From positions 4,960,001 to 5,024,000 of the forward strand of contig OZ024763.1 in NCBI GenBank assembly GCA_964016885.1: a stretch of 64,000 nucleotides of DNA, read 5' to 3'. How positions within the stretch are numbered: position 1 is the first letter of the stretch; every line of letters starts with the position of its first letter. Made by a program: the position numbers and the translations under genes. Below are positions 12,269-63,847 of the stretch, in pieces. This stretch comes from Eledone cirrhosa. Taxonomy: Eukaryota. The notes under the pieces were generated by a model, which was not told where the DNA came from, did no database searches, and worked only from the letters and a program-made list of their open reading frames with translations.

Positions 12269-12276
<8 letters not shown>

Positions 12277-12990: not shown

Positions 12991-13184
12991 ATATATACTC
13001 ACAACACTCATGTAGGTGTTTCAAAAGTTTCAGCTTCCTCAGCTGACAAATGTCTGTGTGTCCCCACTGTAGTTTTCCATGCATGGCATAACCACTCTGT
13101 GCGATGGTAGTGTTGCTGCCACAATAAAAAACACTGCATTGAAAAATATGCAAATATTGGTTGTCTGCATTTATTGAGATAATT

Positions 13185-13665
13185 AATAATTATTTCTACT
13201 TTTGGCACAAGGCCGGCAATTATCCCAGTGCATTACTGGTACTTTATTTTATCGACCCCCGTAAGGATGAAAGGCAAAGTTAACCTCGGCGGGATTTGAA
13301 TTCAGACCATAAAGGGCCGTAACCCTTTGCTGCAAAGCATGGCATCCGACCCTCTACCGACACTGCCAATCCACTGCCATCCCAATCAATTTATTGAGAT
13401 AATTAATAACTGTTTCTACATTAGGCACAAGGCCAGCAATTACCCAGTGTATTACTGGTACTTTATTTTATCGACCCCGTAAAGATGAAAGGCAAAGTCA
13501 ATCTCGGCGGGATTTGAACTCAGATCGTAAAGGGACGTAACTATGCTGCAAAGCATGGCATCCGACCCTCTACCGATACTGCCAAGCCACCGCCATCCCA
13601 ATCTAGACACAAGGCCAGCAATTTCGGTAGAGGGGAAAGTTGACTAAATCGACCCCAGTGCATTA
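13185..13665 (-). mobile_element. Two tandem copies of SINE family 2 (Meta/Sauria-like central domain) plus a fragment
   Basis: Reverse complement of GGATTGGCAGTATCGGTAGAGGG...GAGTTCAAATCCCGCCGAGGTTAACTTTGCCTTTCATCC...GTCGATAAAATAAAGTACC. Confidence 0.8.
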
Positions 13666-17514: not shown

Positions 17515-18357
17515 AGGTACTGTAGAAATGTCACAATAAAACTGAAGATGAAATCTAGGTTCAAATTTTAAATTTAATGTATTATGTCATAGAGGTAGAG
17601 CCACTGTAGAAATATTACAATAAAATGAAGCTCAAATTTAGGTTCAAATTTTAAATATAATGTATTATGCCATAGAGGTAGAGCCACTGTAGAAATATTA
17701 CAATAAAATGAAGCTCAAATTTAGGTTCAAATTTTAAATATAATGTATTATACCATAGAGGTAGAGCCACTGTAGAAATGTCACAATAAAATGAAGCTCA
17801 AATCTAGGTTCAAATTTAAAATATAATGTATTATGTCATATGGGGTGGTAGAGCCACTGTAGAAATGTCACAATAAAATGAAGCTCAAATCTAGGTTCAA
17901 ATTTAAAATATAATGTATTATGTCATATGGGGTAGAGCCACTGTAGAAATGTCACAATAAAATGAAGCTCAAATCTAGGTTCAAATTTAAAATATAATGT
18001 ATTATGTCATATGGGGTGGTAGAGCCACTGTAGAAATGTCACAATAAAATGAAGCTCAAATCTAGGTTCAAATTTAAAATATAATGTATTATGTCATATG
18101 GAGTAGAGCCACTGTAGAAATGTCACAATAAAATGAAGCTCAAATCTAGGTTCAAATTTAAAATATAATGTATTATGTCATATGGGGTAGAGCCACTGTA
18201 GAAATGTCACAATAAAATGAAGCTCAAATCTAGGTTCAAATTTAAAATATAATGTATTATGTCATATGGGGTAGAGTCACTGTAATAAAATGAAGCTCAA
18301 ATCTAGGTTCAAATTTAAAATATAATGTATTATGTCATATGGGGTAGAGCCACTGTA
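17515..18357. repeat. Minisatellite, 83-87 bp unit, ~10 copies
   Basis: GTAGAGCCACTGTAGAAA at 17595, 17678, 17761, 17848 and onward. Confidence 0.95.
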
Positions 18358-18684
18358 CAAATGAATCACAAAACTAAAAGATAACCCTGTGGGTTATGTT
18401 GAAAATTTGAACTTCATCCGGTGATCAATCATGTCAATATAGATAGAATGTTACCCTCATTCTGTCTGAGAATTATATTAACACTTTTCCTTATCACACT
18501 TATACTGCCTAATGTTGGCTTATATGATTTTCAATTAATTTTGAAAATAATCTGAATTTCTCATTATTAACCCTTTAGCATTTAAACCAGCCATATCCGG
18601 CCAGAATCCTCTCCCCTCTTTCTGTTCAATCTGACTGTAACTGGCCCCTGTAAAGTAAATAATATCAAAATTTCATAGATCCAA

Positions 18685-19289
18685 TATTATGTGAGGAAAT
18701 TATGTGAGGTAAAGCCTTTACTGTGAAAATACAATAGTATATATAGAGTAATGTAAATATTATGTGAGATATTATGTGAGATAAAGCCTTTACTGTGAAA
18801 ATACAATAGTATATATAGAGTAATGTAAATGTTATGTGAGATATTATGTGAGGTAAAGTCTTTACTGTGAAAATACAATAGTATATATAGAGTAATGTAA
18901 ATGTTATGTGAGATATTATGTGAAGTAAAGCCTTTACTGTGAAAATACAATAGTATATATAGAGTAATGTAAATGTTATGTGAGATATTATGTGAGGTAA
19001 AGTCTTTACTGTGAAAATACAATAGTATATATAGAGTAATGTAAATGTTATGTGAGGTATTATGTGAGGTAAAGCCTTTACTGTGAAAATACAATAGTAT
19101 ATATAGAGTAATGTAAATGTTATGTGAGATATTATGTGAGGTAAAGCCTTTACTGTGAAAATACAATAGTATATATAGAGTAATGTAAATGTTATGTGAG
19201 ATATTATGTGAGGTAAAGCCTTTACTGTGAAAATACAATAGTATAGAGTAATGTAAATGTTATGTGAGGTACTATGTGAGGTAAAGCCT
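18685..19289. repeat. Minisatellite, 72 bp unit, ~8 copies
   Basis: TAAAGCCTTTACTGTGAAAATAC with 72-bp period (18710, 18782, 18854 and onward). Confidence 0.95.
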
Positions 19290-20925: not shown

Positions 20926-20949
<24 letters not shown>

Positions 20950-20956
<7 letters not shown>

Positions 20957-21148
20957 TTATTTTATAGAAGGAGCTTCTACAGGACTAGTACTGTTTCATT
21001 CAGATGAAATGCTTCCTGAAGATTTCATCTGAATGAAACAGTACTAGTCCTGTAGAAGCTCCTTCTATAAAATAAAAAAATTTTACTCTGCCATGTATTG
21101 AGTACCTTACTTACTGTGGTTATCCCTGACTCAACCCGGGACCTACGT
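20950..21148 (+). mobile_element. Family A fold-back element in (TA)n
   Basis: Arms ~20952-21010 and 21022-21080, followed by the family A tail. Confidence 0.85.
21011..21059 (+). ncRNA. Type I hammerhead ribozyme
   Basis: Stem I GCTTC/GAAGC, CTGAAGA, stem II TTC-ATCT-GAA, GAAA, stem III ACAG/CTGT, cut GTA^ after 21054. Confidence 0.8.
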
Positions 21149-22300: not shown

Positions 22301-22371
22301 ACCAAACAACAGTATATTAGTATCAAATTATTCAGTACATTACAATAAGCCGTTAGAAAGACTGTAGAGCT

Positions 22372-24085
22372 GTAGAGGTGACGTCACAGTCGCTGCTGTT
22401 GTGTTAGTCTATCTCTAGAGGTGACGTCACAGTCGCTGCTGCTGTGTTAGTCTATCTCTAGAGGTGACGTCACAGGCGCTGCTGTTGTGTTAGTCTATCT
22501 CTAGAGGTGACGTCACAGGCGCTGCTGCTGTGTTAGTCTAACTCTAGAGGTGACGTCACAGTCGCTGCTGCTGTGTTAGTCTAACTCTAGAGGTGACGTC
22601 ACAGTCGCTGCTGCTGTGTTAGTCTAACTCTAGAGGTGACGTCACAGTCGCTGCTGCTGTGTTAGTCTAACTCTAGAGGTGACGTCACAGTCGCTGCTGC
22701 TGTGTTAGTCTATCTCTAGAGGTGACGTCACAGTCGCTGCTGCTGTGTTAGTCTAACTCTAGAGGTGACGTCACAGGCGCTGCTGTTGTGTTAGTCTATC
22801 TCTAGAGGTGACCTTACAGGCGCTGCTGCTGTGTTAGTCTATCTCTAGAGGTGACGTCACAGTCGCTGCTGCTGTGTTAGTCTATCTCTAGAGGTGACGT
22901 CACAGTCGCTGCTGCTGTGTTAGTCTATCTCTAGAGGTGACGTCACAGTCGCTGCTGCTGTGTTAGTCTATCTCTAGAGGTGACGTCACAGTCGCTGCTG
23001 CTGTGTTAGTCTATCTCTAGAGGTGACGTCACAGTCGCTGCTGCTGTGTTAGTCTATCTCTAGAGGTGACGTCACAGTCGCTGCTGCTGTGTTAGTCTAT
23101 CTCTAGAGGTGACGTCACAGGCGCTGCTGTTGTGTTAGTCTATCTCTAGAGGTGACGTCACAGGCGCTGCTGCTGTGTTAGTCTATCTCTAGAGGTGACG
23201 TCACAGTCGCTGCTGCTGTGTTAGTCTATCTCTAGAGGTGACGTCACAGGCGCTGCTGTTGTGTTAGTATCTCTAGAGGTGACGTCACAGGCGCTGCTGT
23301 TGTGTTAGTATCTCTAGAGGTGACGTCACAGGCGCTGCTACTGTGTTAGTCTATCTCTAGAGGTGACGTCACAGTCGCTGCTGCTGTGTTAGTCTATCTC
23401 TAGAGGTGACGTCACAGGCGCTGCTGCTGTGTTAGTCTATCTCTAGAGGTGACGTCACAGTCGCTGCTGCTGTGTTAGTCTATCTCTAGAGGTGACGTCA
23501 CAGGCGCTGCTGCTGTGTTAGTCTATCTCTAGAGGTGACGTCACAGTCGCTGCTGCTGTGTTAGTCTAACTCTAGAGGTGACGTCACAGTCACTGCTGCT
23601 GTGTTAGTCTATCTCTAGAGACGACGTCACAGGCGCTGCTGTTGTGTTAGTCTATCTCTAGAGGTGACGTCACAGGCGCTGCTGTTGTGTTAGTATCTCT
23701 AGAGGTGACGTCACAGGCGCTGCTGTTGTGTTAGTATCTCTAGAGGTGACGTCACAGTCGCTGCTGCTGTGTTAGTCTATCTCTAGAAGTGACGTCACAG
23801 TCGCTGCTGCTGTGTTAGTCTATCTCTAGATGTGACGTCACAGGCGCTGCTGTTGTGTTAGTCTATCTCTAGAGGTGACGTCACAGGCGCTGCTGCTGTG
23901 TTAGTCTATCTCTAGAGGTGACGTCACAGGCGCTGCTGTTGTGTTAGTATCTCTAGAGGTGACGTCACAGGCGCTGCTGTTGTGTTAGTATCTCTAGAGG
24001 TGACGTCACAGGCGCTGCTGCTGTGTTAGTCTATCTCTAGAGGTGACGTCACAGTCGCTGCTGCTGTGTTAGTCTATCTCTAGAG
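22372..24085. repeat. Minisatellite, 43-bp unit (some 41), ~40 copies, each with GTGACGTCAC (CRE consensus)
   Basis: Unit CTAGAGGTGACGTCACAGTCGCTGCTGCTGTGTTAGTCTATCT, period 43 (22421, 22464 and onward). Confidence 0.97.
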
Positions 24086-24178: not shown

Positions 24179-24181
<3 letters not shown>

Positions 24182-24338
24182 GATAAATCTACCAAGAGTT
24201 TACGGTAGTGTCCAATCCGTATGAAGAACTCAATGTATTCCGGATATCATGGAAAGAAGAGATGTAATGAAAAATCACTTTCGGTGAAAGATAAACGGTA
24301 TACAGAGTCAAGATAAAATATTAAACAAATAATGAATA

Positions 24339-24343
<5 letters not shown>
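24179..24343 (-). mobile_element. Family E tail-only copy in (TA)n
   Basis: Near-identical to 44110-44275. Confidence 0.8.
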
Positions 24344-25552: not shown

Positions 25553-25559
<7 letters not shown>

Positions 25560-26080
25560 AAGTTAAATAAAAGTCAAATGATTAAAATTTAGCTTCGTTT
25601 ATTACTGCTATATATATTTCAGTGACAGCCATCTTTGGCTGTGACCTCTTCAGGCAGTTTGAATTAGTATGGTATAGACAAGTACATATGTTGTTTAGGT
25701 GTATGATATTGTCAATACTCTGATATGCCCAGTTCCTTGCTGGGTTGTTAATTCACTGGGGAACTGGAGTCATATCCCCAGTGAATTAACAACCCAGCAA
25801 GGAACTGGGCATATCAGAGTATTGACAATATCATACACCTAAACAACATATGTACTTGTCTATACCATACTAATTCAAACTGCCTGAAGAGGTCACAGCC
25901 AAAGATGGCTGTCACTGAAATATATATAGCAGTAATAAACGAAGCTAAATTTTAATCATTTGACTTTTATTTAACTTTATTTTACACTACTCCGGAGTAA
26001 CCAAACCAACCTGCGCACTTCGTCGAGTGCTCCAGCCTGCATACTGAGGTGTTGGTATACAACCAACATAAACTCAAAAT
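25553..26080 (+). mobile_element. Fold-back element with 210-bp inverted arms plus single-copy tail
   Basis: Arms 25553-25762 and 25775-25984, 12-nt spacer, TA tracts on both sides. Confidence 0.9.
25879..25933 (+). ncRNA. Type I hammerhead ribozyme (mirror copy on - strand at ~25604-25658)
   Basis: Stem I ACTGC/GCAGT, CTGAAGA, stem II GT.ACAGCC/GGCTGT.AC, GAAA, palindromic ATATATAT, cut ATA^ after 25928. Confidence 0.85.
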
Positions 26081-26202
26081 CTATATATATATATATGTAG
26101 GAGGTGAGTTTTATTGTAGTACAATAAAGCAATGCAGATATCGGATAAGAAGCACTCTACAGTTTGTGGGACTGGAGTATGCATAATATATATATAATAT
26201 AT

Positions 26203-28622: not shown

Positions 28623-29132
28623 GGGCGGTGGATTGGCAGTATCGGTAGAGGGTCGGACGCCATGCTAGGGCGGTGGATTGGCAGTATCGGTAGAGGGTCG
28701 GACGCCATGCTAGGGCGGTGGATTGGCAGTATCGGTAGAGGGTCGGACGCCATGTTAGGGCGGTGGATTGGCAGTATCGGTAGAGGGTCGGACGCCATGT
28801 TAGGGCGGTGGATTGGCAGTATCGGTAGAGGGTCGGACGCCATGTTAGGGCGGTGGATTGGCAGTATCGGTAGAGGGTCGGACGCCATGTTAGGGCGGTG
28901 GATTGGCAGTATCGGTAGAGGGTCGGACGCCATGTTAGGGCGGTGGATTGGCAGTATCGGTAGAGGGTCGGACGCCATGCTTTGCAGCATAGAGTTACGG
29001 CGCTTTATGATCTGAGTTCAAATCCCGCCGAGGTTAACTTTGCCTTTCATCCTTACGGGGGTCGATAAAATAAAGTACCAGTAATGCACTGAGGTAATTG
29101 CTGGCCTTGTGCCAAAAGTAGAAACAATTATT
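28623..29132 (+). mobile_element. SINE family 2 with its 45-bp A-box head in 8 tandem copies
   Basis: GGGCGGTGGATTGGCAGTATCGGTAGAGGGTCGGACGCCATG(C/T)TA at 28623+45n up to 28938. The last unit continues into the SINE body. Confidence 0.9.
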
Positions 29133-30569
29133 TTACTTTATTTTGCATTGTTTTGTCTCACTGCACCACTAACAACAACAACAATAACAGTAGCAGCAAC
29201 AACAGCAGCAACTGTGATAACAACAACAACAACAGCAATTGTGACAACATCTTACCAAAAAATAATTGTTTCTGATTTAGGCAGAAAGCCAACAATTTTG
29301 GTGGGAGGGGAAAGTCAATTAAATCGACCGCAGTATGTTACTGGTACTTTATTTTATCGACCCTGTAAAGAAAAAAGGCAAAGCTAACTTCGGCGGGATT
29401 TGAATTCAGAACGTAAACGGCCGTAACTCTATGCTGCGATATATATCATCTGACGCTCTACCGATTACTGCCAACCCACCAGCCTTATTAATGACAAGTA
29501 ATTGTTTCACCTTTGACACAAGACCAACAATTACCTCAGTACATTACTGGTAATTTAATGACAAATAATAACACTTGATTACGTGAAATTATAAGTAGTG
29601 GAATTTTAAGAGTAAACCTAATCACAGAAACCTACTTCTGCTAATCTTTACACATTAGAAATACTGCTGTGTCGCTTTATTTGGCCTAATTGCACTTCTA
29701 AAACAACAACAACAACATAATTCTTTCTAACAATGGCATGTTGTTGTTGTTTCTGTGTTTTGTCTCAGTTAAGTTTCATATAATCATAACAACGGGGTGA
29801 CCAAGATAACAATTACAATTGCTCAAAGACGGTTACGATTTGCAGGACATTGCTGGAGAAGTAAGTTGGAAGTTAGTCAAAGATTGAGTGACACTTTAAA
29901 GCAGAGACATTTTGGGAGTGGTGTTTATTTGAAACCGTAACAAAACTACTTTTGTTAAAAACCTAAAGCTCCGCCTAGTGTCAGGGTAACTGCTGCATAC
30001 CTTTATTTTATCTTACTCTACCTCTGAAGAAGAAGAAGAAGAAGAAGAAGAAGAAGAAGAAGAAGAAGAAGAAGAAGAAGAAGAAGAAAAAAAATTGATA
30101 AATACCACATTTGGTTGCATGTAATTCTAAGCAGTTGCAAAAACCTCGGAATGTGCAGCTGCAATAGTAAGAACATGTAGTAGATATTGGTATATCTTTT
30201 AAGATACTAAGTTAAGTTGCACCACATACATACATACATACATACATACATACATGCATACATACATACATACATACATACTTACATGCATGTATACACA
30301 CATACATACATACTTACATATATACATGCATGTATACATACATACATGCATACATACATATTTACATATATACATACTTACATATATACATACATACATG
30401 CATACACACATACATACATACTTACATATATACATGCATGTATACATACATACATGCATACATACATATTTACATATATACATACTTACATATATACATA
30501 CATACATGCATACATACATACATACATACATATATACATACTTACATACATACATGCATGTATACATGG

Positions 30570-31127
30570 TGGCTGCCAACTCGTTTTCGAGTACGGCCAC
30601 TACTTTATATCCATGTAGGAGAACCCCTACCGATGCGCTAAACAAGTGTGACTTTTAGTCCAGCCAGCGACTTGAAAACTCTGGTACAAACACTACACCT
30701 GTGACAATTATTGACACATAGTGTTGGGCCTTTGGTACCATGTGACGACAAGTGTAGAGAGATCTCCAGATATAAAGCAATGCCTGTGCTGTGAAGCTTT
30801 TATAGTGAGCAAAGGCACTGCACAAAGCCAGTCCCACTCTCTTAACCAAGATGATATTTACCAAAAAGAAGAACAGGTCAACATCATTGGATACCATCAG
30901 GATTGCAGGTGTTATATCAGAGTTTTCCTTCTCCTAGAATTCTGCCTTGACAAAGGCTAAGGGGTCATCTCTCCCGGTGATTTTGGATGGCTATTGACTC
31001 TTAAGAGCTCCCTTGCCCTTTGACAGGTTTTGTTTTTAGTCCTGCAGGATGTCCAAAGTCACCCTCCTCACCAAGAAACCTTGGTGGGGTTGCCAGTTTA
31101 GTCGCCAACGACCCGACCATGAGACAG
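30570..31127 (-). mobile_element. Dispersed ~560-bp repeat embedded in (TACA)n
   Basis: Reverse complement of 46835-47406. Confidence 0.85.
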
Positions 31128-35164: not shown

Positions 35165-35302
35165 ATATATTAAAATACAAATATTAATAAAATAGATGTT
35201 CTTTTTATCAATTACATTATATTATACATATTTCAGATGTACAACAGTACGTCCTCATCTTGTACATCTGAAATATGTATAATAAAATGTAATTGATAAA
35301 AA
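35165..35302 (-). mobile_element. Fold-back element truncated within the hammerhead core
   Basis: Arms 35202-35244 and 35260-35302. Minus strand GATGAGGACGTAC-TGTT-GTACATCT-GAAATATGTATA. Related to 54383-54449. Confidence 0.7.
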
Positions 35303-36645: not shown

Positions 36646-37183
36646 TGAGAGAGAGAGAGTAGAGAAAGAGAGTAAGAGAGAGAGTGAGATAGTGAGAGAG
36701 AGAGAGAGTGGGAGAGAGAGAGAGTAAGAGAGAGAGAGAGAGAGAGAGTGAGATAGTGAGAGAGAGAGAGAGTGGGAGAGAGATAGATAGATAGAGAGAG
36801 AGAGAGTAGAGAAATAGAGTAAGACAGAGAGAGAGTGAGATAGTGAGAGAGAGAGAGAGAGTGAGATAGTGAGAGTGAGGGAGTGAGAGAGAACGAGAGA
36901 GAGAGAGCACTGCAAGTTAGAGATAACGTGGGCAGCTGAGATAGGGAGTAGGGTGAGGGCGGGTTGATAGGTGGTGTTGACACAGAGAGTAAATAGGAAA
37001 GTGGCTGCCTTAGTGTGGGTAGAAATGTAGGGGGTGGGGTCTGGGTGTGGTGTGTGGTGGGAGGATGAGTGTGTGGTAGGAGGGTGTGTGTGTGGGGGGC
37101 AGGGTAGATCACTGATGTGTCAAACAACCCCAGTAGCAAGGAGTCTGCCTGCCTTAACACAGATTTTTCTTGTCTGGAACAAA

Positions 37184-38575
37184 ATAGTTACTGGTAAGAC
37201 TTAAACACATGTAAATATAACAGTTACTGGTATGACTTAAACCAATATGAATATATCAGTTATTGGTAGAACTGAATATAACAGTTACTGGTAAGACTTA
37301 AACCCATATGAATATAACAGTTACTGGTAAGACTTAAACTGCATAAATATAACAGTTACTGGTAAGACTTAAACCTACATAAATATAACAGTTACTGGTA
37401 AGACTTAAGCCTACATAAATATAACAGTTACTGGTAAGACTTAAACTACATAAATATAACAGTTACTGGTAAGACTTAAACCTACATAAATATAACAGTT
37501 ACTGGTAAGACTTAAACCTACATAAATATAACAGTTATTGGTAAGACTTAAACTACATAAATATAACAGTTACTGGTAAGACTTAAACTACATAAATATA
37601 ACAGTTACTGGTAAGACTTAAACCTACATAAATATAACAGTTACTGGTAAGACTTAAGCCTACATAAATATAACAGTTACTGGTAAGATTTAAACTACAT
37701 AAATATAACAGTTACTGGTAAGACTTAAACTATATAAATATAACCGTTACTGGTAAGACTTAAACTACATAAATATAACAGTTACTGGTAAGACTTAAAC
37801 TACATAAATATAACAGTTACTGGTAAGACTTAAACTACATAAATATAACAGTCACTGGTAAGACTTAAACTATATAAATATAACCGTTACTGGTAAGACT
37901 TAAACTACATAAATATAACAGTTACTGGTAAGACTTAAACTACATAAATATAACCGTTACTGGTAAGACTTAAACTACATAAATATAACAGTCACTGGTA
38001 AGACTTAAACCTACATAAATATAACAGTTACTGGTAAGACTTAAGCCTACATAAATATAACAGTTACTGGTAAGACTTAAACTACATAAATATAACAGTT
38101 ACTGGTAAGACTTAAACTATATAAATATAACCGTTACTGGTAAGACTTAAACTACATAAATATAACAGTTACTGGTAAGACTTAAACTACATAAATATAA
38201 CAGTTACTGGTAAGACTTAAACTACATAAATATAACAGTCACTGGTAAGACTTAAACTATATAAATATAACCGTTACTGGTAAGACTTAAACTACATAAA
38301 TATAACAGTTATTGGTAAGACTTAAACTACATAAATATAACAGTTACTGGTAAGACTTAAACTACATAAATATAACAGTTACTGGTAAGACTTAAACTAT
38401 ATAAATATAACAGTTACTGGTAAGACTTAAACTATATAAATATAACAGTTACTGGTAAGACTTAAACTATATAAATATAACAGTTACTGGTAAGACTTAA
38501 ACCCATATGGAGATAACAGTTACTGGTAAGATTTAGACCTATATAAATATAACAGTTACTGCTAAGACTTAAACC
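37184..38575. repeat. Minisatellite, 35-36 bp unit, ~39 copies
   Basis: Unit AAATATAACAGTTACTGGTAAGACTTAAACTACAT. Confidence 0.97.
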
Positions 38576-39154
38576 CTATGAAAAGGAAATAAATGAAATG
38601 GCTATTAAAGGGAAATAAAATGACTGTGGGAGGGGAGGCTAAATTTTGGTGGCAGAATAATTAAGGATCACTTTTAATCCCCTGGAAGACACGAAACTTA
38701 TAGGATTTGCTTAGGGCCTCAAATTTCATATAGTTTAGGGCTTCGGCCGGTGAGAGTTCGACCCTGGCACTAACATAGAGTCACATTTGGGGACTGCGGA
38801 TTACTATAGAGCCGGAGAGCCATTATTACTACGTATATAAAATGCAGTGAAAGTTAGAGAAATAGTTAATAAAATTATTTATAATTCTTGCAACGGGAAC
38901 GAACAAATAAACAAAAAAAAAAAAGATAAGTATACCTCTTCTCTCTAAGGTACCAAGATGGATGTTAAAGCTATATAGTTAAAAGGGAAAATTTTGTGAT
39001 GGTCTACTGAGGTACGAGATAACGCGAGGTTATGGATCACGTGATTAATATCTAACACTCCCAGCGTTTTTATCTTTGAAAGATTATTCCGAGTTTACAT
39101 TCCGTTCCGAGGTTTTAGCCGAGAAATATTTTCAGGAACATAAATTGTTTCAAA

Positions 39155-43486: not shown

Positions 43487-43613
43487 CGAAGGAAATGTGG
43501 TAAGGAACCAGGTGGACCATAACGCACCAAAGTACTCAATACTTGGGGTAGTAGAGTGGGTAATAGGAACCAGTAAGACCCCGACGGCTGAGCTCAAGCC
43601 GTTTCGACGGCTA

Positions 43614-43617
<4 letters not shown>
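43484..43617 (-). mobile_element. Family C element without inversion
   Basis: Matches 45523-45657. TA tracts on both sides. Confidence 0.85.
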
Positions 43618-43649
<32 letters not shown>

Positions 43650-43653
<4 letters not shown>

Positions 43654-44092
43654 AAGTTTTATTTAAATTGTTGGGTTAACAACGAGTAAATATTTATAAC
43701 TGATATAAAAGCACTCAACAAGTATTTGGAGTATATTTACGATATTAAATAAATGGAAACTATATTTATAAAACCATATTTATTTCATTATATATATTTC
43801 AGGGATATCATATTAAAAATATGTTATGCCTTCCTCAGACAAAATACAATATAAACAGTCTTATAAATAGATAGATTCGACATACCTTTCAACTTCGACT
43901 TCTATTTGAAATCAAACTTTTCAAATAGAAGTCGAAGTTGAAAGGTATGTCGAATCTATCTATTTATAAGACTGTTTATATTGTATTTTGTCTGAGGAAG
44001 GCATAACATATTTTTAATATGATATCCCTGAAATATATATAATGAAATAACTATGGTTTTATAAATATAGTTTCCATTTATTTAATATCGTA
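43650..44092 (-). mobile_element. Family D fold-back element, 174-bp arms
   Basis: Arms 43738-43911 and 43919-44092. Tail 43650-43737 is the reverse complement of 52535-52620. Confidence 0.9.
43984..44049 (+). ncRNA. Type I hammerhead ribozyme (mirror copy on - strand)
   Basis: Stem I TATTTTGT/ATGAAATA, CTGAGGA, long stem II, GAAA-TATATATA^. Confidence 0.75.
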
Positions 44093-44109
44093 TATATATA
44101 TATATATAT

Positions 44110-44602
44110 GTAGATAAATCTACCAAGAGTTTACGGTAGTGTCCAATCCGTATGAAGAACTCAATGTAATCCGGATATCATGGAAAGAAGAGATGCAATG
44201 AAAAATCACTTTCGGTGAAAGATAAACGGAATACAGAGTCAAGATAAAATATTAAAAAAATAATGAATAAAACAATGAAACAGTTCCTTATATTAAACAA
44301 AAAAAGTTCATTATTTAACGATCGTTTCTAGGATATATATGTGTTAGAATTGGCATGCATATTCAACAGATCTATGTACAAAATTATACAAAATTATACA
44401 AACTATCAAAATTAAATATACATACCAACACATATATATGCCGTCTTCAGAAATAATCAGATTATTTGTACATAGATCTGTTGAATATGCATGCCAATTC
44501 TAACACATATATATCCTAGAAACGATCGTTAAATAATGAACTTTTTTTGTTTAATATAAGGAACTGTTTCATTGTTTTATTCATTTTTTTTTAATATTTT
44601 AT
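44110..44602 (-). mobile_element. Family E fold-back element, ~139-bp arms
   Basis: Arms 44244-44382 and 44465-44602. Confidence 0.88.
44310..44457 (-). ncRNA. Type I hammerhead ribozyme with greatly extended stem/loop II
   Basis: ATTATTT-CTGAAGA-CGGCATATATATGTGTTGG...CTAACACATATATATCCTA-GAAACGATCGTT^AAATAAT. Confidence 0.7.
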
Positions 44603-45178
44603 ATATATATATATATATATTTGTGATTATGTATATATTTTTGTGATTACGGATATATTTAAAAATTCCTTTAAATGATAACTTTCGTTTAGTTAGTATC
44701 TTAACTCAGTATTATATAATCGCTTACGTCAGAGGTCACAGGCAGGGGTTCAAATTACTATGTCGCATAGATAAACCTTCCGCTTGGAGTTAAAGTTGGT
44801 AAACCAAAAATATAACCTCCGTTCTCCAGGGAACATTGTAAATCTTTGAGACGTGTTTTTAGGAGAAAATATCACCTTTAATGTCAGGAAATGTGATATC
44901 GTCTTTAAGAAAAGCTTTACTGATGTAGAAAGAAGACAATAAAAACACTATTGCAGCTCGGTTAATATTTATACTGGCTGTATGTCCTCCTTATCAGCAA
45001 ATCCTTTACCATATGGACTGGGTGTATGTTATCAAGCTATCATCACCATCGCTGAACTTTCACCTGCTGAGGCCCGGAGGTATTTAAAATTTGGGGTCCT
45101 TCTCTAGAAAAAGTTTAAATAATTATACATGATTGTTATTTATTAATGATTACAGAATTAATACCCCCCCCCCACACA

Positions 45179-45259
<81 letters not shown>

Positions 45260-45485
45260 AGAGTGTGTGTGCGTGTTTGTGCATAGAACAATATAAAAAC
45301 AGAAGCCAGGTTTCGGTAGAGAGTTAGTTCATTGTTTTACGATCGTTTCAGAGGCTCGATTGATTGATGGACATCGATATATCGACTAGCATGGTAGTGG
45401 TTAAGTTACTACTTATTTTCTAGTGACGAAAACCCTTTTCAATCGCCCATCTTCCTCAGCCCCACCACAACCAGGTGGATTACAA

Positions 45486-45522
<37 letters not shown>

Positions 45523-45526
<4 letters not shown>

Positions 45527-45709
45527 CGAAGGAAATGTGGTAAGGAACCAGGTGGACCATAACGCACCAAAGTACTCAATACTTGGGGTAGTAGAGTGGG
45601 TAATAGGAACCAGTAAGACCCCGACAGCTGAGCTCAAGCCGTTTCGACGGCTAATTCAGAATTAGCCGTCGAAACGGCTTGAGCTCAGCTGTCGGGGTCT
45701 TACTGGTTC

Positions 45710-45713
<4 letters not shown>
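45523..45713 (-). mobile_element. Family C fold-back element, 55-bp arms, 1-nt spacer
   Basis: Arms 45603-45657 and 45659-45713. Confidence 0.9.
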
Positions 45714-45750
<37 letters not shown>

Positions 45751-46265
45751 TTATATATATATATATATAGAGAGAGAGAGACAGAGAGAGATAGTTAAAG
45801 ATTTTTAAGAAACGAAATAGCGACTTAGACGCCGAGATATAGCACAGTATGGTTTTGCTGAAATCTTGCATTCTTCTTCTGTACACAGCATGTGTCCAAT
45901 TACACCCCACCTCTCCCTCTAGCCTGTCTTCAACCATTATTGTATATATATATATATATATATATATAGATATAGATATATATATCACACCTCTCTCCAG
46001 TCCCTGCATCTCTCATACCTATATATCACTTTTTCTTACTTCTCGGCATCAGTCCTTCCTGTACCTCATACCTATATATATATATATATATATGTGTATA
46101 TATACACGTATATATACATATATATATGTGTATATATACACGTATATATACATGTATATACATATATATATATATATATATATACATATATACGTAGATA
46201 TACATATATGTATACCTATATATACATATATGTATACCTATATATGTATACCTTACCTATATATA

Positions 46266-46297
<32 letters not shown>

Positions 46298-46338
46298 AAT
46301 ATTTATAGATATATGCGTACATATATTTATACACACAC

Positions 46339-46387
<49 letters not shown>

Positions 46388-46834
46388 AATTGTATATAGA
46401 AATATATACCTACACAGACATATTTAATTCCCTCACACAAACTCTGTTCCCTGTTTCCCTCTCCAACATGTAAGATATGGTTACTAGAAGTTGTTTACTT
46501 AGTAGAAATGTTCCTTCTTTGCTTTTCCTTTTGCCAAAAATATATTTATATACATCTAGTCATCATTAGGAAGTAAATTTTTAGCTTTCCGTGTCTGCGT
46601 GTGTGTGTGTGAGTGTGTATATGTGTGTGTCTCTGTGTGTGAGTTTATGTGTATATGTATGTGTGCATGTGTGTGTGTGTGTGTATGTATGTGAGTCTGT
46701 GTGTCTGTGTGTGAGTTTATGTATATATGTATGTGTGCATGTATGTATGCGTGTATGTATGTATGTATGTATGCGTGTATGTGTGTATCTATGTATGTAT
46801 GTATGTATGTATGTATGTATGTATGTATGTATGT

Positions 46835-47406
46835 ATCCCAGTACAAACTGCCTCATGGTCGGGTCGTTGGCGACTAAACTGGCAACCCCATCAAGGTTCC
46901 TTGGTGAGGAGGGTGACTTTGGACATCCTGCAGGACTAAAAACAAAACCTGCCAAAGGGCAAAGGAGCTCTTAAGAGTCGATGGCCATCCAAAATCACCG
47001 GGAGAGATGATCCCTTAGCCTTTGCCAAGGCAGAATTCTAGGAGAAGGAAAACTCTGATATAACACCTGAAACCCTGATGGTATCCAATGATGTTGACTT
47101 GTTCTTCTTTTTGGTAAATATCATCTTGGTTAAGAGAGTGGGACTGGCTTTGTGCAGTGCCTTTGCTCACTATAAAAGCTTCACGGCACAGGCATTGCTT
47201 TATATCTGGAGATCTCTCTGCACTTGTCGTCACATGGTACCATGGGCCCAGCACTATGTGTCAATAATTGTCACAAGTGTAGTGTTTGTACCAGAGTTTT
47301 CAAGTCGCTGGCTGGACTTAAAGTCACACTCGTTCAGCGCATTGGTAGGGGTTTTCCTACATGGATATAAAGTAGTGGCCGTACTCGAAAACGAGTTGGC
47401 AGCCAG
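46835..47406 (+). mobile_element. Dispersed ~560-bp repeat embedded in (TATG)n
   Basis: Matches the 2007 and 30570 copies. Confidence 0.85.
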
Positions 47407-47410
47407 TATG

Positions 47411-47444
<34 letters not shown>

Positions 47445-48533
47445 TGTATGTATGTATGTATGTATGTATGTATGTATGTATATATGTATATATGTATGTA
47501 TGTGTGCATCTACGTATGTGTGTGTGTATGTATGTGAGTCTGTGTGACTGCGTGTGAGTTTATGTATATATGTATGTGTGCATGTATGTATGCGTGAGTG
47601 TATGTAGGTATGTATGTCTGTGTGAGTTTATGTAGTATATATGTATGTATATAGAAAAAACTGAAAAGGTTTACTCCCGACCAGGATCAAACTTCAGACC
47701 TGGATTATATCTGTATATATATATATATGTGTATATATATATATATGTATATGCATATATATATATACATAAATATACATATATATATATATATATATAC
47801 ATACACATATATATATATATACATACACATATATATACATATCTACATATATATATATATATACATATATATATACATATACATATATATATACATACAT
47901 ATATACATATATATACATACATATATATATATACATACATATATACATACATATATATATATATATATATACATATATATATACATATATATATATATAC
48001 ATATATATATACATAAATATACATATATATATATATATACATACACATATATATATATATATATACATACATACACATATATATACATACACATATATAT
48101 ACATATATACATATATATATATATACATACATATATATATACATATATACATATATATATATATACATATATATATACATATATATATACATATATATAT
48201 ACATATATACATATATATATACATATATATATACATATTTATATATAAACATATTTATATATACATATATTTATATATATATACATATATACTTACACAC
48301 ACACACGCATACACACAAGTTGTCTGTTTAGAATTTAATCTGAGATTTCGAAATCTTCAAGGTTCCTGTATGATAAACACCTGGCCCCTAGCGGAGATTT
48401 TGGCAGGAAGGACTGGAATCGGGGATGCAGGGAAGGGTTATTTCTTTCTGCCCCATCTTAGGCAGGAAAGATGGATGTAGAGTTACTACTACTACCTCTA
48501 CTGCTACTACTACTACTACTGCTGCTACTACTG

Positions 48534-48577
<44 letters not shown>

Positions 48578-48596
48578 GCTGCTACTGCTGCTGCTA

Positions 48597-48631
<35 letters not shown>

Positions 48632-48672
48632 ACTACTACTACTACTACTACTACTACTAACATACTTTCATC

Positions 48673-48858
48673 AGTGGATTGGCAGTATCGGTAGAGGGTC
48701 GGACGCCATGCTTTCCAGCATAGTTACGTCCCTTTACGATCTGAGTTCAAATCCCGCCGAGGTTGACTTTGCCTTTCATCCTTACGGGGTCGATAAAATA
48801 AAGTACCAGTAATGCACTGGGTAATTGCTGGCCTTGTGCCTAAAGTAGAAACAATTAT
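48673..48858 (+). mobile_element. SINE family 2 (further copies at ~29270-, 32770-, 42085+, 49927+, 58693+, 63495+)
   Basis: Same head, B box and central domain as the 28938 copy. Confidence 0.85.
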
Positions 48859-48936
48859 GATGGTAATTATGATTGTTTAGAAATCAGAGCAGTCAAATTC
48901 GATAAATACAAAAAGTAAATAAAAAATAACCAATTC

Positions 48937-48975
<39 letters not shown>

Positions 48976-49014
48976 TACATATGGGTGTGTGTGTGCGTGT
49001 GTGTGTGTGTGTGT

Positions 49015-49059
<45 letters not shown>

Positions 49060-49063
49060 TGTG

Positions 49064-49101
<38 letters not shown>

Positions 49102-50682
49102 CATACAATCATACACATATATACATACAGATACATACATACTACATACATATACATGCATACCTTACATCACAAGCACACACACGCACACATAAAATAC
49201 CCTACATTACACGCGCACACACACACACACACACACATAAAATACCCTACATTACACGCGCACACACACACACACACACAACACAGTACACATACACAAT
49301 TGAGGAGAGAAGATTGGGGGGGGGCTCAGAGGCGGGGGTAGACGAGGAATTAACAGTTTTTAGATAATAAGTTGGTGTTATCGTCTCCTGAAAAATTATT
49401 TGTAAACCACATTCTTTCTCGAGAAGCCGCCTCTACCGCCGCCATTACGGCGGCTCACTGTTGTCGCCTCCTGCCATTAGAGAGCTCTCTCTCATAAGAG
49501 CGGCCATTATATGAAATTCCTGAGATAAGCCAAACCTTTAGCAATAACCTTTCTACATGATATTGGATCTCTTGTAATAGTTTTAACTTTTTTTGACTTT
49601 ACCAATAAATGGGTGGAGATTTTAATCTGGCCTTTATCCATTCATGTATTTATATTTTTTATTTCATATATTTTTATATATTTTTATATATATTTTTATA
49701 TATTTTATATATTTTATAAATTTTTATATATTTTTTATTTTATTTATTTATATATATATTTTATATATTGTTTTCATTAAATACAATTTCAGTATCCAAA
49801 AGGGCAATTCATAAATCAGGGGGAGGCAAAAATATATTTTGGGTGTTTATTTGGTAGAAGAAGTATTAGGACATTCGGCCAAAAATACTTTAGTGTGTCT
49901 TTATTTAATTATTATCATTATTATTATGGCAGTATCGGTAGAGGGTCGGACATCATGCTTTGACGCATAGAGTTACGGCCCTTGCCATTCTGATTTCAAA
50001 TCCCGCCGAGGTTAACTTTGTCTTTCAACCTTTACTGGGTCGATAAAATAAAGTGCCAGTAATGCACTGGGGTGGATTTAATCAACTTTCTACTCCCCCC
50101 AAATTGGTGGCCTTGTGCCTAGAGTAGAAACAATTATTATTGTATTTGTTTGCTGAACGTATACTTTCTGAGTTCAAATCCCAGCCGAGGTTAACTTTGT
50201 TATGTCCTTGAGCAAGAAAGACACGTTATTTGGCGTTGTTCCTTCTGTCAAGAGTTGTGATCCTTAGAAAATATCAGCAATGGAAAAACCAATGGAAACA
50301 TTGTTTCCTCGGTCCTATTTTGACGAAGTCCAACCCACACGGTACGCGAATGAAATCTCTTTCCTCTCTCCAATATAAAGTGTGAAACTAATAAGACTTT
50401 TTGTACCTCTCTTTGTTGTCGCCTTCAGCTATCCAATCTCAAATCTTTTCTCCGCCACTTCCATTCTACTCTCAAGCGCTTCCTCCAACCTCGCCCCACC
50501 TATATGCATCCAATCCCCCCCTTCATATTTCCAACCTCATCTTCACCAAAACAAAATACAACAGTCACATTACCTTTTTAAATCGATGTCAACATGTATG
50601 GCCCTGTTATTTTTTTTATCTAAAGACACTTTTTCCAATTCCAGCCCACCCGTCCCCTCAATCTATCTTATTTCTCATTCTT

Positions 50683-50718
50683 TCTTCTGACGAAGGACTA
50701 GCGTCCGAAACGTTAAGA
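50683..50718 (+). ncRNA. Minimal Penelope-type hammerhead ribozyme
   Basis: TCTT-CTGACGA-A-GGAC-TAGC-GTCC-GAAACGTT^AAGA. AATAAA and a T-rich tail follow before (CA)/(TA)n. Confidence 0.85.
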
Positions 50719-50813
50719 CCCTCTTCCTGCTATATCAAACGTTAACCTAATAAATCCCTTCTATATACTGTACCGATTGTGTTGTTATTTCTGTTTACCT
50801 TTTACACACACAC

Positions 50814-50856
<43 letters not shown>

Positions 50857-51679
50857 AATGAAAGGTATAGAAAGTATTGTAGCAAGAAGCCAACAGTATT
50901 CCATAATATATAAGTGACTATAGGGTCAAAATGGGAAAATAGTTAACGTAAGATGTGGGAAAAATAATTGTGGGAAAAATAATTCAAACTCAATTCAAAA
51001 AGAATCAGGATATAGATTTATCCAACAGAATTTAGTGAAATCCAGGGAAAAAATCAATAGAGCCTTAACTCATGATAAATAAAGTTTAAAATACTCATCC
51101 TTCAATTTGGGACAACTACAAATGCTCTGTATAGTCTTGAAAAAGACTATATATATATATATGTTATTCTTGTTTTTTTTTTTACATTAATATAAAAAAA
51201 TAATTATCATGTATAATTATTAAAATGTTTTCTTTTAGAGAAGGGCTTCAAATTTTATATAATTTAGGGCTTCAACAGTTGAATGTCCAGCCTTGCATAA
51301 TGGTATATCGGTGTAATGGTGAAACAAACACCCAAGGAGTCAATTACTCAATGAATGACTTATATTTAAACAAGAGAGACGTTTAACTAAGCTGGTTTCT
51401 GTCAATTTTATGAACAGGAAACTAAAGTTCTTTAACTCGTGTCACTGAAGCGAGTTAGTTGTTAAACAGATGGGTGCCAGAGTCAACAATATTTTATTTG
51501 AAAAACTAAAAAAGTTTAGTCTGAAGGATATCCTGCAGAAGAATAGATATAAGAGTTGTAGTAGCTGTTGTTGTTATATAACAGATGTAAAATTTATAAA
51601 TTCTAGGACCACTAAATAACTAGGGAGATGTTACAGATAAATAAATAAGTAAATATATATATACATACATATATACATA

Positions 51680-51747
<68 letters not shown>

Positions 51748-51828
51748 CATATATATATATATGTATATATATATGTATATATATATGTATATATAAATAT
51801 ATATATATGTGTATATATAAATATATAA

Positions 51829-51864
<36 letters not shown>

Positions 51865-51940
51865 GTATATATAAATATATAAATATATATATATATATAT
51901 AAATATATATGTATATATATATGTATATATAAATATATAA

Positions 51941-51976
<36 letters not shown>

Positions 51977-52157
51977 GTATATATATGTATATATACATGT
52001 ACATACATATATATGTATATATATATGTATATATATACATATATAGAAAAGTGGGTCTTGAGGATCATACCACTATACCACTTCTTTGTATATTAAACAC
52101 TGACATTTTAATCTCGGGTCAATTTGATTAAAATATTGCAGATAAATTTCTCTCTCT

Positions 52158-52251
<94 letters not shown>

Positions 52252-52254
<3 letters not shown>

Positions 52255-52618
52255 GATATTAAATAAATGGAAACTATATTTATAAAACCATATTTATTTC
52301 ATTATATATATTTCAGGGATATCATATTAACAATATGTTATGCCTTCTTCAGACAAAATACAATATAGACAGTTTTATAGATAAATAGATTTGACATACC
52401 GTTCAACATCGACTTGTCTATATTGTATTTTGTCTGAAGAAGGCATAACATATTGTTAATATGATATCCCTGAAATATATATAATGAAATAAATATGGTT
52501 TTATAAATATAGTTTCCATTTATTTAATATCGTAAATATACTCCAAATACTTGTTGAGTGCTTTTATATCAGTTATAAATATTTACTAGTTGTAACCCAA
52601 CAATTTAAATATAACTTT

Positions 52619-52620
<2 letters not shown>
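52252..52620 (+). mobile_element. Family D fold-back element, 120-bp arms, hammerhead at 52426-52491
   Basis: Arms 52252-52371 and 52415-52534. CTGAAGA at 52434. Confidence 0.9.
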
Positions 52621-52687
<67 letters not shown>

Positions 52688-52688
<1 letters not shown>

Positions 52689-53058
52689 CGATATTAACAA
52701 ATGGAAACTATATTTATAAAACCATATTTATTTCATTATACATATTTCAAGGACACCAAGTTAAATTATGGTGTGCTCTCATCAGATAAAATATAATATA
52801 GATCAGTTTTATAAATAAATATTGACATACCCTTAAAGAATGCAACCATTACTGTTGGAAGCTCCCGGATAGTCTGATGAAAGCACACCATAATTTAACT
52901 TGGTGTCCTTAAAATATGTATAATGAAATAAATATGGTTTTATAAATATAGTTTCCATTTGTTATTATCGTATTTTTACTCCAAATATTTGTTGAGTGCT
53001 TTATATCAGTTATAAAAATATTGGCTTGTTGTATTCCAACAATTTAAATAGAACTTTT
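52688..53058 (+). mobile_element. Family D-related fold-back element, ~99-bp arms, hammerhead on - strand at 52729-52793
   Basis: Arms 52688-52786 and 52873-52971. CTGATGA core with a different stem II (ACACCA/TGGTGT). Confidence 0.85.
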
Positions 53059-53257: not shown

Positions 53258-53894
53258 AAAAAAACATATATATATAGATACAAATATTATATATATTTTG
53301 TTTTGACCTGTTTAGCTTGATTTGCTTTTTGGCTTTTTGATGGTTAATGCTTTCTTGACCACTTTTTCAGTTTGTATGACGTCTTAACATATTGTTTAGC
53401 TCTGGTTTTTAAACTATGGAACGCTTGCCAGCATAACTCTGGTTTTTGCGTTTCGTTTCGCTTTTTCTACCCACCGAAATGCGATTCTCCCTGAATTTAT
53501 ATTTGTATATACATATATATATATATATACATTATGAAGAGAGAAGAAACATTTAGATATAATTAGTAATAAAATGTATCATACCTAAACTGCTCCTAGA
53601 TTCCTCGACTACGTAGTTTCGTGGCATAAACAAAAACAATACATCATAAAGATATAGAGTCCTTGCGAGGTCTGCCGACTAGTCAAGAGGATACCTCATT
53701 TTACTAGTCTCAAGAACGCGTCTACACGACGTGAGAAAGAATCCCAAAAGGCGGAGGGGGAGATAGTCACGCGATATAACGGTCGAGAAACAGAGCTAAG
53801 CCTCTTATAACCCCGAAGAAAATACCACGGAGGCGGAGGGGGTATTTATATCGAAGCCGTAGAAGAGGTGGTGAAGGAGGCGACACACATATAT

Positions 53895-54217
53895 ATTTCA
53901 CGCTCTGGAGAGTGGGGTGGTGGTGGGGAACGACGTTTCGGGCATAAGCCCTTCCTCAGGTGAGAAGGTGTGTGGGAACAGCGTTCAAAGGGTGTGTAGG
54001 GGAGTGGTGGAGAGACATATAGCGACCTTTCGCTATATGTCTCTCCACCACTCCCCTACACACCCTTTGAACTCTGTTCCCACACACCTTCTCACCTGAG
54101 GAAGGGCTTATGCCCGAAACGTCGTTCCCCACCACCACCCCACTCTCCAGAGCGTGAAATTAATAAACATTCGTTATATTGCCTCTCTGTTTTGTTCCTG
54201 TTCAAATTTTTCCATTA
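53895..54217 (+). mobile_element. Fold-back element, 131-bp arms, with minimal hammerhead at ~54094-54125
   Basis: Arms 53895-54025 and 54030-54160 with one mismatch seen. CTGAGGA-A-GGGC-TTAT-GCCC-GAAACGTC^. Confidence 0.88.
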
Positions 54218-54382
54218 TATATATATATATATATATATATATTTAAATGTTAAACAAGGTTCGTTGAATAAATCAAAGAATTAGTTTTACAATAGATTGG
54301 AAGCACTCAACAAAATGTTTTCCGGAATTATTAATATTCATTCAAAATATTAACAAAAATAGAACTTCATTGTGATCAAGTA

Positions 54383-54449
54383 TATTTTATTATACATATT
54401 TCAGAGGTACTGAGCTAACTTCAACAGTACGACCTCATCAGATAAAATA
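54383..54449 (-). ncRNA. Type I hammerhead ribozyme
   Basis: Stem I TATTTTAT/ATAAAATA, CTGATGA, stem II GTACTG/CAGTAC, GAAATATGTATA^. Confidence 0.8.
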
Positions 54450-55373
54450 AGATGATGCATGACATACCCTGACATAGTAGATGGTTAAGATACAGTCATG
54501 GTAGTGAGTAAGATATGACAAATCTCAATATTTATATACCTTAAGATTGATACATGAAATAACTTACATATAATACAGATAATACAGAGGGTGAGTGTAA
54601 GAAAGCTAAAGATACACAACAGTAATTTACATAACTGTTAGAGATTCAAATAATTATTGAAGATAGAGGAAAGAAAAAAGAGAGAGAGAAAACATATGAG
54701 GGGAAAATATAGCTAGAAGAGGTATAGAGAGCAACGGAGGATTGATCAAGGAAAGGCAGACAAAGAGGAATAATTATAATTATAGGGAGGGATGTATAGT
54801 TATGTATGATATATATCCATACATAACTATACATTTGGACATAGCTATGCGATAGAGTAAACTCGAATCATTGAATTTTTGAATTATCTAGAAATATTCA
54901 TCAATCTAAATCCTAAATATAACTGGGTGTAATCAATAAGGGTTAATTTCCTCAGTTAATTAGTTATATATACTATCCAAATGTGTCCGGTTGACCGTTA
55001 ACTTTCAAATCTTTTAAGTTAGTTCAGAGTAATTAATTAATTAAAGTGTATAATATTTCAGGCAATGAAATCCTTAGGGTTTCTCTTTCTCATGTTTGCA
55101 GACACATTATACTACTATATAAATTTATAAAGAAAATCTAGGATCGCAGACAATTCATTTTTTTACTGTGAATCGTATTCTTATCCGTATGATTCAAGAA
55201 ATTTGACTTAGATATTTATAGTATATATGTGTTACATGACCTTATTATAATAATTGATCTAAAACCTTAATTTTTAACAATATTACCAGTAAGTTATTGT
55301 GTGTGCTAATGTTTGTATGTGTGTGTGAGTTTGTGCGTGTGCGTGTGCGTGTGGCCTGTGTGTGTGAGTTTGT

Positions 55374-58687: not shown

Positions 58688-58879
58688 TATATTGGATTGG
58701 CAGTATCGGCAGAGGGTCGGACGCCATGCTCTGCAGCAAAGAGTTACATCCCTGTATGATCTGAGTTCAAATCCCGCCGAGGTTAACTTTGCCTTTCATC
58801 CTTTCCGGGGGGTCGATAAAATAAAGTACCAGTAATACACTCAGATAATTGCTGGCCTTGTGCCAAAAGTAGAACCAAT

Positions 58880-58910
<31 letters not shown>

Positions 58911-58912
58911 GT

Positions 58913-59108
58913 ATAACGAAGGAAATGTGGTAAGGAACCAGGTGGACCATAACGCACCAAAGTACTCAATACTTGAGGTAGTAGAGTGGGTAATAGGAAC
59001 CAGTAAGACCCCGACAGCTGAGCTCAAGCCGTTTCGACGGCTAATTCATCACCGAATTAGCCGTCGAAACGGCTTGAGCTCAGCTGTCGGGGTCTTACTG
59101 GTTCCTAT
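58913..59108 (-). mobile_element. Family C fold-back element, 55-bp arms, 6-nt spacer
   Basis: Arms 58993-59047 and 59054-59108. Confidence 0.9.
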
Positions 59109-59109
59109 A

Positions 59110-59214
<105 letters not shown>

Positions 59215-63035: not shown

Positions 63036-63847
63036 TAAATGACTATATAAATAAATAAACACGCCCTAAAAGTTTTAAAGAATGAAATATCGAGAAAACT
63101 ACAGACCATAATACATATATATCTATATATTTGCATGTGTGGTTCGAAATACACACACACACACACTCACACACGCACACACACACACACACGCACGCCC
63201 CCCCCACATATATAAATGTTTTGCTACTATTCTATGAGAAAATTCCAATAGCATTTTCTAATATAAATATATGAAGGTGTGTGTGTGTAATAAATACATA
63301 TATATATATTATGAGTACAGCTTAAGCAAAGAATTTCTGCTTTCAAGCCTATTACGGCATATTTTGAAACTTTAATCTGTATTAATAATAAATATTTGCT
63401 CTACGGGTTTATATATACTTTTTTTTTAATTCATATATATAATCCTTATTGAATCCTCATCAGATTTTAGTTTTCGTAATTATTATTATTGGTGAATTGA
63501 CAGTATCGATAGAGGGTTGGACGCCATGCTTTCTAGCATAGTTACGTCCCTTTACAGTCTGAGTTCAAATCCCGCCTAGGTTAACTTTGCCTTTCATCCT
63601 TACGGGGGTCGATAAAATAAAAAAAAGTACCAATAATGCACTGGGTTATTGCTGGCCTTGTGCCTAAAGTAGAAACAATTATTATTATTATATATATAAA
63701 TATACATACATACATACACACACACATATATATATATATATATAAACATACATACACACACATATATATATAAGTTTATCCCAGGTTCAATCGGGGGTAA
63801 CCACAGTAAGTAAGGAACTCAATACGTAAACATTATTACATGATGCT

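Follow-up and report, generated by a model that had tools for sequence, protein, structure and literature searches.

Penelope-like elements (PLEs) are recognised by an inverted, 5′-truncated copy, a tail that is often present at one end only and insertion into (TA)n targets, with hammerhead ribozymes in the Hydra clade (Craig et al. 2021, PMC8557442). A curation guide gives the same footprint (PMC8969392), and the hammerheads carried by PLEs are typically minimal (PMC6155905). In the passages cited here, the tail is ascribed to endonuclease resolution (PMC8557442), and the origin of the inverted ends is stated as open (PMC8557442; PMC11167929). In vitro, the purified PLE protein Poseidon_Ac cuts and extends both target strands, its reverse transcriptase (RT) starting at two internal RNA sites that lie downstream of the hammerhead and bound the tail, with no homology to the target DNA required (Frangieh et al. 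2024, PMC11167929). Here, we describe family D, three lopsided mirror-image repeats (D1, D2 and D3) inside TA microsatellites of Eledone cirrhosa, at 43651-53058 of a 64,000-nt window (the whole stretch of DNA analysed: assembly GCA_964016885.1, contig OZ024763.1, positions 4,960,001 to 5,024,000, forward strand). From their non-coding features we call them PLE-type insertions; they have the PLE layout and probably arose when two cut (TA)n ends copied the same RNA region from two fixed starts.

The label PLE-type is used without a clade because no RT or endonuclease gene was found. It refers to a predicted hammerhead in the terminal repeat, a head-to-head inverted, 5′-truncated copy in three of three cases, a tail at one end and, as a trait of the Hydra clade, (TA)n insertion. 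Family D shares with the endonuclease-positive (EN+) PLEs of PMC8557442 the head-to-head inverted copy, the single tail, the (TA)n targets and a hammerhead in the terminal region, but its copies are shorter than 450 nt, too short for an RT/GIY-YIG open reading frame (ORF), and contain no recognisable ORF; strict one-tail pairing and the hairpin described below are absent from the cited passages of that paper. Likeness to Poseidon_Ac extends to AT-rich targets and, as we infer for D, to a start in a stem loop and two tail-bounding starts, although that stem loop is AC-rich, in contrast to the ACTC/GAGT bulged hairpin of D, and inverted products are not modelled in the passages cited (PMC11167929). 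Metazoan non-long-terminal-repeat (non-LTR) retrozymes are likewise non-coding, carry type I hammerheads and have a proposed PLE mobilisation or origin (PMC7229834; bioRxiv 10.64898/2026.07.22.740005), but they are tandem ~300 bp monomers with canonical hammerheads, whereas each D copy in the window is one truncated end bearing a minimal core. A paper on octopus repeats lists active Penelope families, and its cited part holds no passage on these structures (PMC13282606).

Layout and junctions of family D

An earlier, sequence-only reading of this stretch had described three copies with arms of 174, 120 and ~99 bp, a common outer end entering (TA)n and differing inner junctions with spacers of 7, 43 and ~86 nt. 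All of this is borne out: the arms measure 173, 119 and 99 nt, the excess of 1 nt being (TA)n ambiguity, and the tail-less arm of all three copies terminates at ..TTAATATCGT and then enters (TA)n. That reading had overlooked the hammerhead cores, the tail and the nature of the spacer. Each of the three copies carries an extra tail of 87-88 nt on one side only, and in each the tail-less arm is the longer one, with the spacer being element sequence that extends it. The orientation of D2 and D3 is opposite to that of D1 (Table 1). Five of the six ends adjoin (TA)n, the remaining one (the tail end of D3) adjoining (CA)10 and then (TA)n; there is no poly(A), as the tail ends pass directly into (TA)n or (CA)n. 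The inner joint shows an overlap of 3 nt in D1 and 1 nt in D2. Different families are stacked within one (TA)n tract at 43487-44599 and at 52253-53058, where each insertion leaves TA targets for the next.

Table 1. Positions in the window of the family D copies, their parts and related palindromes (., no strand)
Feature	Positions	Strand	Details
D1, whole copy	43651-44091		tail 88 nt; arms 173 nt, 1 mismatch; spacer 7 nt
(TA)n target, D1 tail side	43618..43650	.	
D1 tail	43651..43738	-	88 nt, between proximal and distal element ends
D1 bulged hairpin	43713..43732	-	ACTC-3bp-loop-3bp-TT-GAGT, directly past proximal end
D1 tail-bearing arm	43739..43911	-	173 nt
D1 predicted minimal type I hammerhead core	43789..43838	-	in tail-bearing arm; predicted cut 50 nt from proximal end
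D1 spacer	43912..43918	+	7 nt, extends tail-less arm; one base inserted vs family continuation
D1 tail-less inverted arm	43919..44091	+	terminus is the fixed proximal site; predicted hammerhead core 43992-44041
(TA)n target, D1 tail-less side	44091..44109	.	
D2, whole copy	52253-52621		arms 119 nt, 0 mismatches; spacer 43 nt; tail 88 nt
D2 tail-less arm	52253..52371	-	119 nt, adjoins (TA)n; predicted hammerhead core 52303-52352
D2 spacer	52372..52414	-	43 nt, collinear with tail-less arm; 6 differences vs D1
D2 tail-bearing arm	52415..52533	+	predicted hammerhead core 52434-52483
D2 tail	52534..52621	+	88 nt; bulged hairpin 52540-52559
(TA)33 common to D2 and D3	52622..52687	.	
D3, whole copy	52688-53058		arms 99 nt, 3 mismatches; spacer 86 nt; tail 87 nt
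D3 tail-less arm	52688..52786	-	99 nt, diverged subfamily; predicted hammerhead core 52737-52785
D3 spacer	52787..52872	-	86 nt, family sequence extending tail-less arm
D3 tail-bearing arm	52873..52971	+	begins 1 nt ahead of hammerhead CUGA; core GAAA -> AAAA
D3 tail	52972..53058	+	87 nt, then (CA)10 and (TA)n; bulged hairpin 52978-52997
Eight further one-sided palindromes between TA runs	2913-3138, 12270-12459, 20949-21147, 25555-26081, 35171-35301, 44110-44599, 45526-45710, 58911-59115		several families; tails 32-145 nt
Single-arm or nearly single-arm copies	43487-43619, 24179-24340, 12476-12633		other families; tail end present

Evidence from other samples comes from reduced-representation restriction-site-associated DNA (RAD) reads, which cover limited loci and were taken at their best-supported loose ends, and is therefore neither a census nor a genome-wide histogram. 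Within that scope, reads from other samples support a fixed outer end with scattered inner ends. At the outer site, at least 5309 of 33462 aligned reads in run X16 and at least 6017 of 37224 in run X17 gave loose ends with (TA)n as their consensus, and the same outer (TA)n junction was present in at least 33 contigs of X1 and at least 3 of X5, under two organism labels; the outer loose end is reported at 43732 because the start of the tail is itself TA-like. Opposite-strand joints numbered at least 13 (4 in one set and 9 in another). Three of these, within 15 nt of the outer site, were left out; the other 10 were 26-186 nt away from it, and their arms differed in length by 0-141 nt. Five of these recur in two runs, and two joints may be one locus. 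A loose end at 43911, the border between arm and spacer in D1, occurred in 1706 and 2038 reads. The spacer of D3 is alignable to D1 over ~45 nt, and reads and contigs of other copies cover it to 52871; C at 52778 in D3 is T in nearly all reads.

No tandem D units were found in the window and none of the three copies contains a partial tandem, i.e. a direct pseudo-long terminal repeat (pLTR), while a few reads hold direct go-back joints that restart proximally. These were seen in reads on 43738-43792 and 52696-52743 (6-21 reads per run); the first part stops near the predicted hammerhead cut and the sequence restarts at the proximal site, possibly as a copy of a cleaved 3′ fragment. The region upstream of the hammerhead was considered as a possible ORF end, three of five D1/D2 changes there reading as synonymous; D3 does not bear this out, as its frame holds a stop.

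Predicted ribozyme and hairpin, and one-sided tails

A minimal type I hammerhead descriptor matches five of the six family D arms, and its seven matches in the window, five of them in family D, all fall within element palindromes (shuffled mean 0.005). Across D and two related families helix II covaries, six of its nine pairs being altered on both sides (seven rows, four of which are near-identical arms). The polarity of the predicted hammerhead sets the arms head to head and places the one-sided extension at the 3′ end. The hammerhead cut site itself was ruled out as the fixed end, the predicted cut lying 49-50 nt inside.

The one-sided layout extends beyond family D. Among 12 element palindromes between TA runs, not one is symmetric and 11 carry a tail at a single end, with ≤7 nt at the opposite end; the segment 61-425 was left out of this count (16-bp arm, without element features). 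Had the ends chosen independently, the probability of this pattern would be 0.5^11 = 0.0005, although the palindromes represent only ~9 sequence-dissimilar families. The exception, at 53530-54215, has 131-bp arms and is extended at either end, by 365 and 55 nt; its hammerhead core is of the classic PLE type, and it gave no hairpin match. A predicted bulged hairpin lies 4-15 nt past the arm end in 10 of the 11 one-tail palindromes (seven of the eight outside D), 5 nt past the proximal end in D, with an inner triplet that varies between families. This conserved hairpin beside the fixed site is a better candidate determinant than TA annealing. An Rfam search of the whole window gave, in the top 150 of its 765 matches, only sub-threshold microRNA (miRNA) hits, which we dismissed as hairpin artefacts.

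All three of the single-arm or nearly single-arm copies inspected retain the tail end, one with a distant fold-back, and in the copy at 12476 the tail-less arm is merely 17 nt. In several other families, judged by eye, the spacer reads as the tail-bearing arm, so that both polarities seem to occur. The inner joint is often at or within a few bases of the hammerhead-like CUGA core (2913, 12270, 20949, 35171, 45526, 58911 and D3, again by eye), which suggests RT stalling, or an RNA 5′ end, at that position.

Origin of the inverted arm

In the mechanism that we favour, the enzyme of the element would cut a (TA)n tract and use a single RNA region as template for extending both ends of the cut. One target end would start at the distal site and yield the tail-bearing arm, and the other would start at the proximal site, 87-88 nt upstream, and yield the tail-less arm, with the enzyme positioned by the bulged hairpin that lies 5 nt past the proximal site. 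The two complementary DNA (cDNA) 3′ ends would then be joined head to head where each had stopped, by repair with an overlap of 1-3 nt. Two-ended priming is likely because purified PLE protein extends both strands from two tail-bounding RNA sites (PMC11167929). The template could be one RNA copied with strand displacement, tandem units or a pair of RNAs from the same source locus. That the tail-less arm is longer in all three copies fits a single RNA on which the proximal copy leads and the distal one follows. The one-tail rule would call for a further restriction, e.g. a dimer on a single RNA, because starts in vitro are alike on both strands. We put forward, only tentatively and at somewhat less than even confidence, the stricter proposal that priming is obligately two-ended and structure-directed: an RT-endonuclease dimer that grips the two ends of a cut TA tract, a hairpin-set proximal start and a distal start, one RNA copied twice with strand displacement and a head-to-head join.

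Several points weigh against copying from both cut ends. The in vitro starts of Poseidon_Ac were alike on the two strands, and PMC11167929, in the passages cited, leaves the later steps of insertion unvalidated; published PLE tails measure 30-40 nt in the sources cited, compared with 87-88 nt in D. No RT or GIY-YIG domain was found in the window, Pfam searches of the 150 longest of 220 unmasked ORFs giving sub-cut-off matches only, and 0 matches came from pattern scans of contigs from metagenomes, prokaryote genomes and viruses. Thermodynamic folding, which backs helix II, gives the full hammerhead as the minimum-energy fold for D3 only. Folding support for the hairpin is weak (z -0.9 to -1.4). 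The hairpin descriptor, with 17 matches in the window against a shuffled mean of 2.3 and 14 of the 17 inside these tails, was written post hoc, after the tails had been viewed. Half of the inner joints in the reads were seen in a single run and may be chimeras of library preparation, and alleles common to both arms could also stem from arm-to-arm conversion. To these is added the direction of the spacer, which self-priming on an antisense template would also produce.

Self-priming is the strongest of the rival explanations, and we consider it unlikely. An antisense transcript or cDNA would fold back and extend, after which an endonuclease would trim one arm proximally and join it to (TA)n. It has been proposed for PLE inverted junctions in the Penelope families of Adineta vaga (Arkhipova et al. 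2013, PMC3846280), where, as in D, the inverted pLTR is shorter than the direct one, the tail is optional and the inverted junction is palindromic; unlike D, those families have a low copy number and visible target-site duplications, and self-priming is invoked in the passages cited. Such a fold-back accounts for identical arms, the ascription of the tail to endonuclease resolution (PMC8557442) fits trimming, and with an antisense template the loop would extend the trimmed tail-less arm, as in three of three D copies. The overlap available for priming at the joint is, however, just 3 nt in D1 and 1 nt in D2, with loops of up to 86 nt and read joints of up to 141 nt. Fold-back of a tail-primed cDNA would place the loop on the tail-bearing arm, and since the spacer in D extends the tail-less arm, this version is excluded there; fold-back of a tail-less cDNA cannot reach the tail. 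Spacer polarity also seems mixed across families when judged by eye, and in vitro the RT starts on sense RNA at each of the two tail boundaries (PMC11167929).

Twin priming of the L1 type, in which an internal, TA-like site of the RNA pairs with the second (TA) end, was the account offered by the sequence-only reading, and one part of it stands: these copies are best explained by priming at both target ends, with an internal start that is fixed. The L1 model itself does not, and we regard it as improbable. The likeness is that two cDNAs primed by both target strands are joined in opposite orientation (PMC12016303), giving two oppositely oriented copies of which one is internally started. There is a TA overlap of at least 1 nt at 10 of 11 proximal junctions, and common family variants render the start of the D tail more TA-like. 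Yet the microhomology of 0-4 nt (0 nt in D3) averages 2.0 against 1.15 by chance, which is not significant over 11 insertions (P 0.06) or nine families (P 0.11), so that the data do not establish annealing of the TA end; other TA stretches of the AT-rich element, e.g. hammerhead helix III, are not the dominant end, and PLE initiation in vitro proceeds without homology (PMC11167929). L1 twin priming, as described in the passages cited, is poly(A)-primed, has spread breakpoints and inverts a segment whose start roughly coincides with the end of the other, the two overlapping little (a median of 12 bp in near-adjacent cases; PMC12016303); in D, by contrast, the start is fixed, 99-173 nt are duplicated between the arms and poly(A) is absent.

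A palindromic master, MITE-like (miniature inverted-repeat transposable element) or fold-back, could have been copied whole and then altered by internal deletions and arm-to-arm gene conversion. A fixed outer end would be expected, and conversion could homogenise the arms. The comparison of arms that the sequence-only reading had suggested was made over the first ~100 nt: identity inside a copy is 99% (D1), 100% (D2) and 97% (D3), against 97-98% between D1 and D2 and 83-85% between D3 and either of them. At all three D1/D2 differences in the shared 119 nt (positions 79, 96 and 116), both arms hold the base of their own copy. An inherited master palindrome is a poor fit, as had been argued, because of this within-copy identity, the own-copy alleles and the three different joints, to which the reads add ~10 more. 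One-sided deletions would be required every time, the termini are not inverted repeats, the tail is one-sided and the same layout recurs in ~9 sequence-dissimilar families, leaving this explanation very improbable. A MITE or terminal inverted repeat (TIR) element was rejected on similar grounds, as the one-sided tail and variable joints of D contrast with inverted repeats at both termini and a constant interior. Palindromes beside long (TA)n belong to a recognised class of artefact, but an assembly or library artefact from fold-back chimeras is scarcely credible here: the boundaries are fixed and linked to RNA motifs, the arms differ by private mismatches and independent samples show the (TA)n junction.

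Copying from both cut ends would build on what is mostly known, as the PLE footprint and the two RT start sites are already published; the hairpin and the one-tail pairing are testable additions. Our literature search, which did not extend to older subscription Penelope papers, found no derivation of the inverted copy from two-ended priming and no account of this hairpin, nor any description of tails on one side only in 11 of 12 palindromes or of a hairpin after the fixed site in 10 of 11. High-copy short palindromes record both start and both stop sites of single events, and rival models can therefore be tested by counting. The hairpin offers a defined mutational test of internal initiation and, if the reading is true, would be a cis signal for such initiation in a telomerase-related enzyme, with obligate two-ended priming replacing self-priming as the source of inverted pLTRs. 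In annotation, such palindromes should be described as ends of PLEs and not as MITEs or miRNA hairpins.

Other repeats in the window

A longer, distant relative of D at 54243-54834 has the tail hairpin, a hammerhead-like core, ~350 nt more upstream and a 21-bp fold-back at 54792-54834; it had no protein match, and a protein library search with a Cys-rich ORF beside a D relative returned repetitive proteins only. The window also holds a dispersed repeat of ~190 nt resembling a short interspersed element (SINE), with many copies (13169-13603, 28942-29135, 48674-48861, 58696-58874 and 63490-63688), and minisatellite arrays at 17519-18376, 18683-19289, 22370-24085 and 37177-38582, with units of ~84, 72, 43-86 and 35-70 nt, respectively. 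A (TATG)n-flanked repeat of 430-690 nt is present at 2007-2433, 30442-31127 and 46842-47533, in copies that are 94-97% alike.

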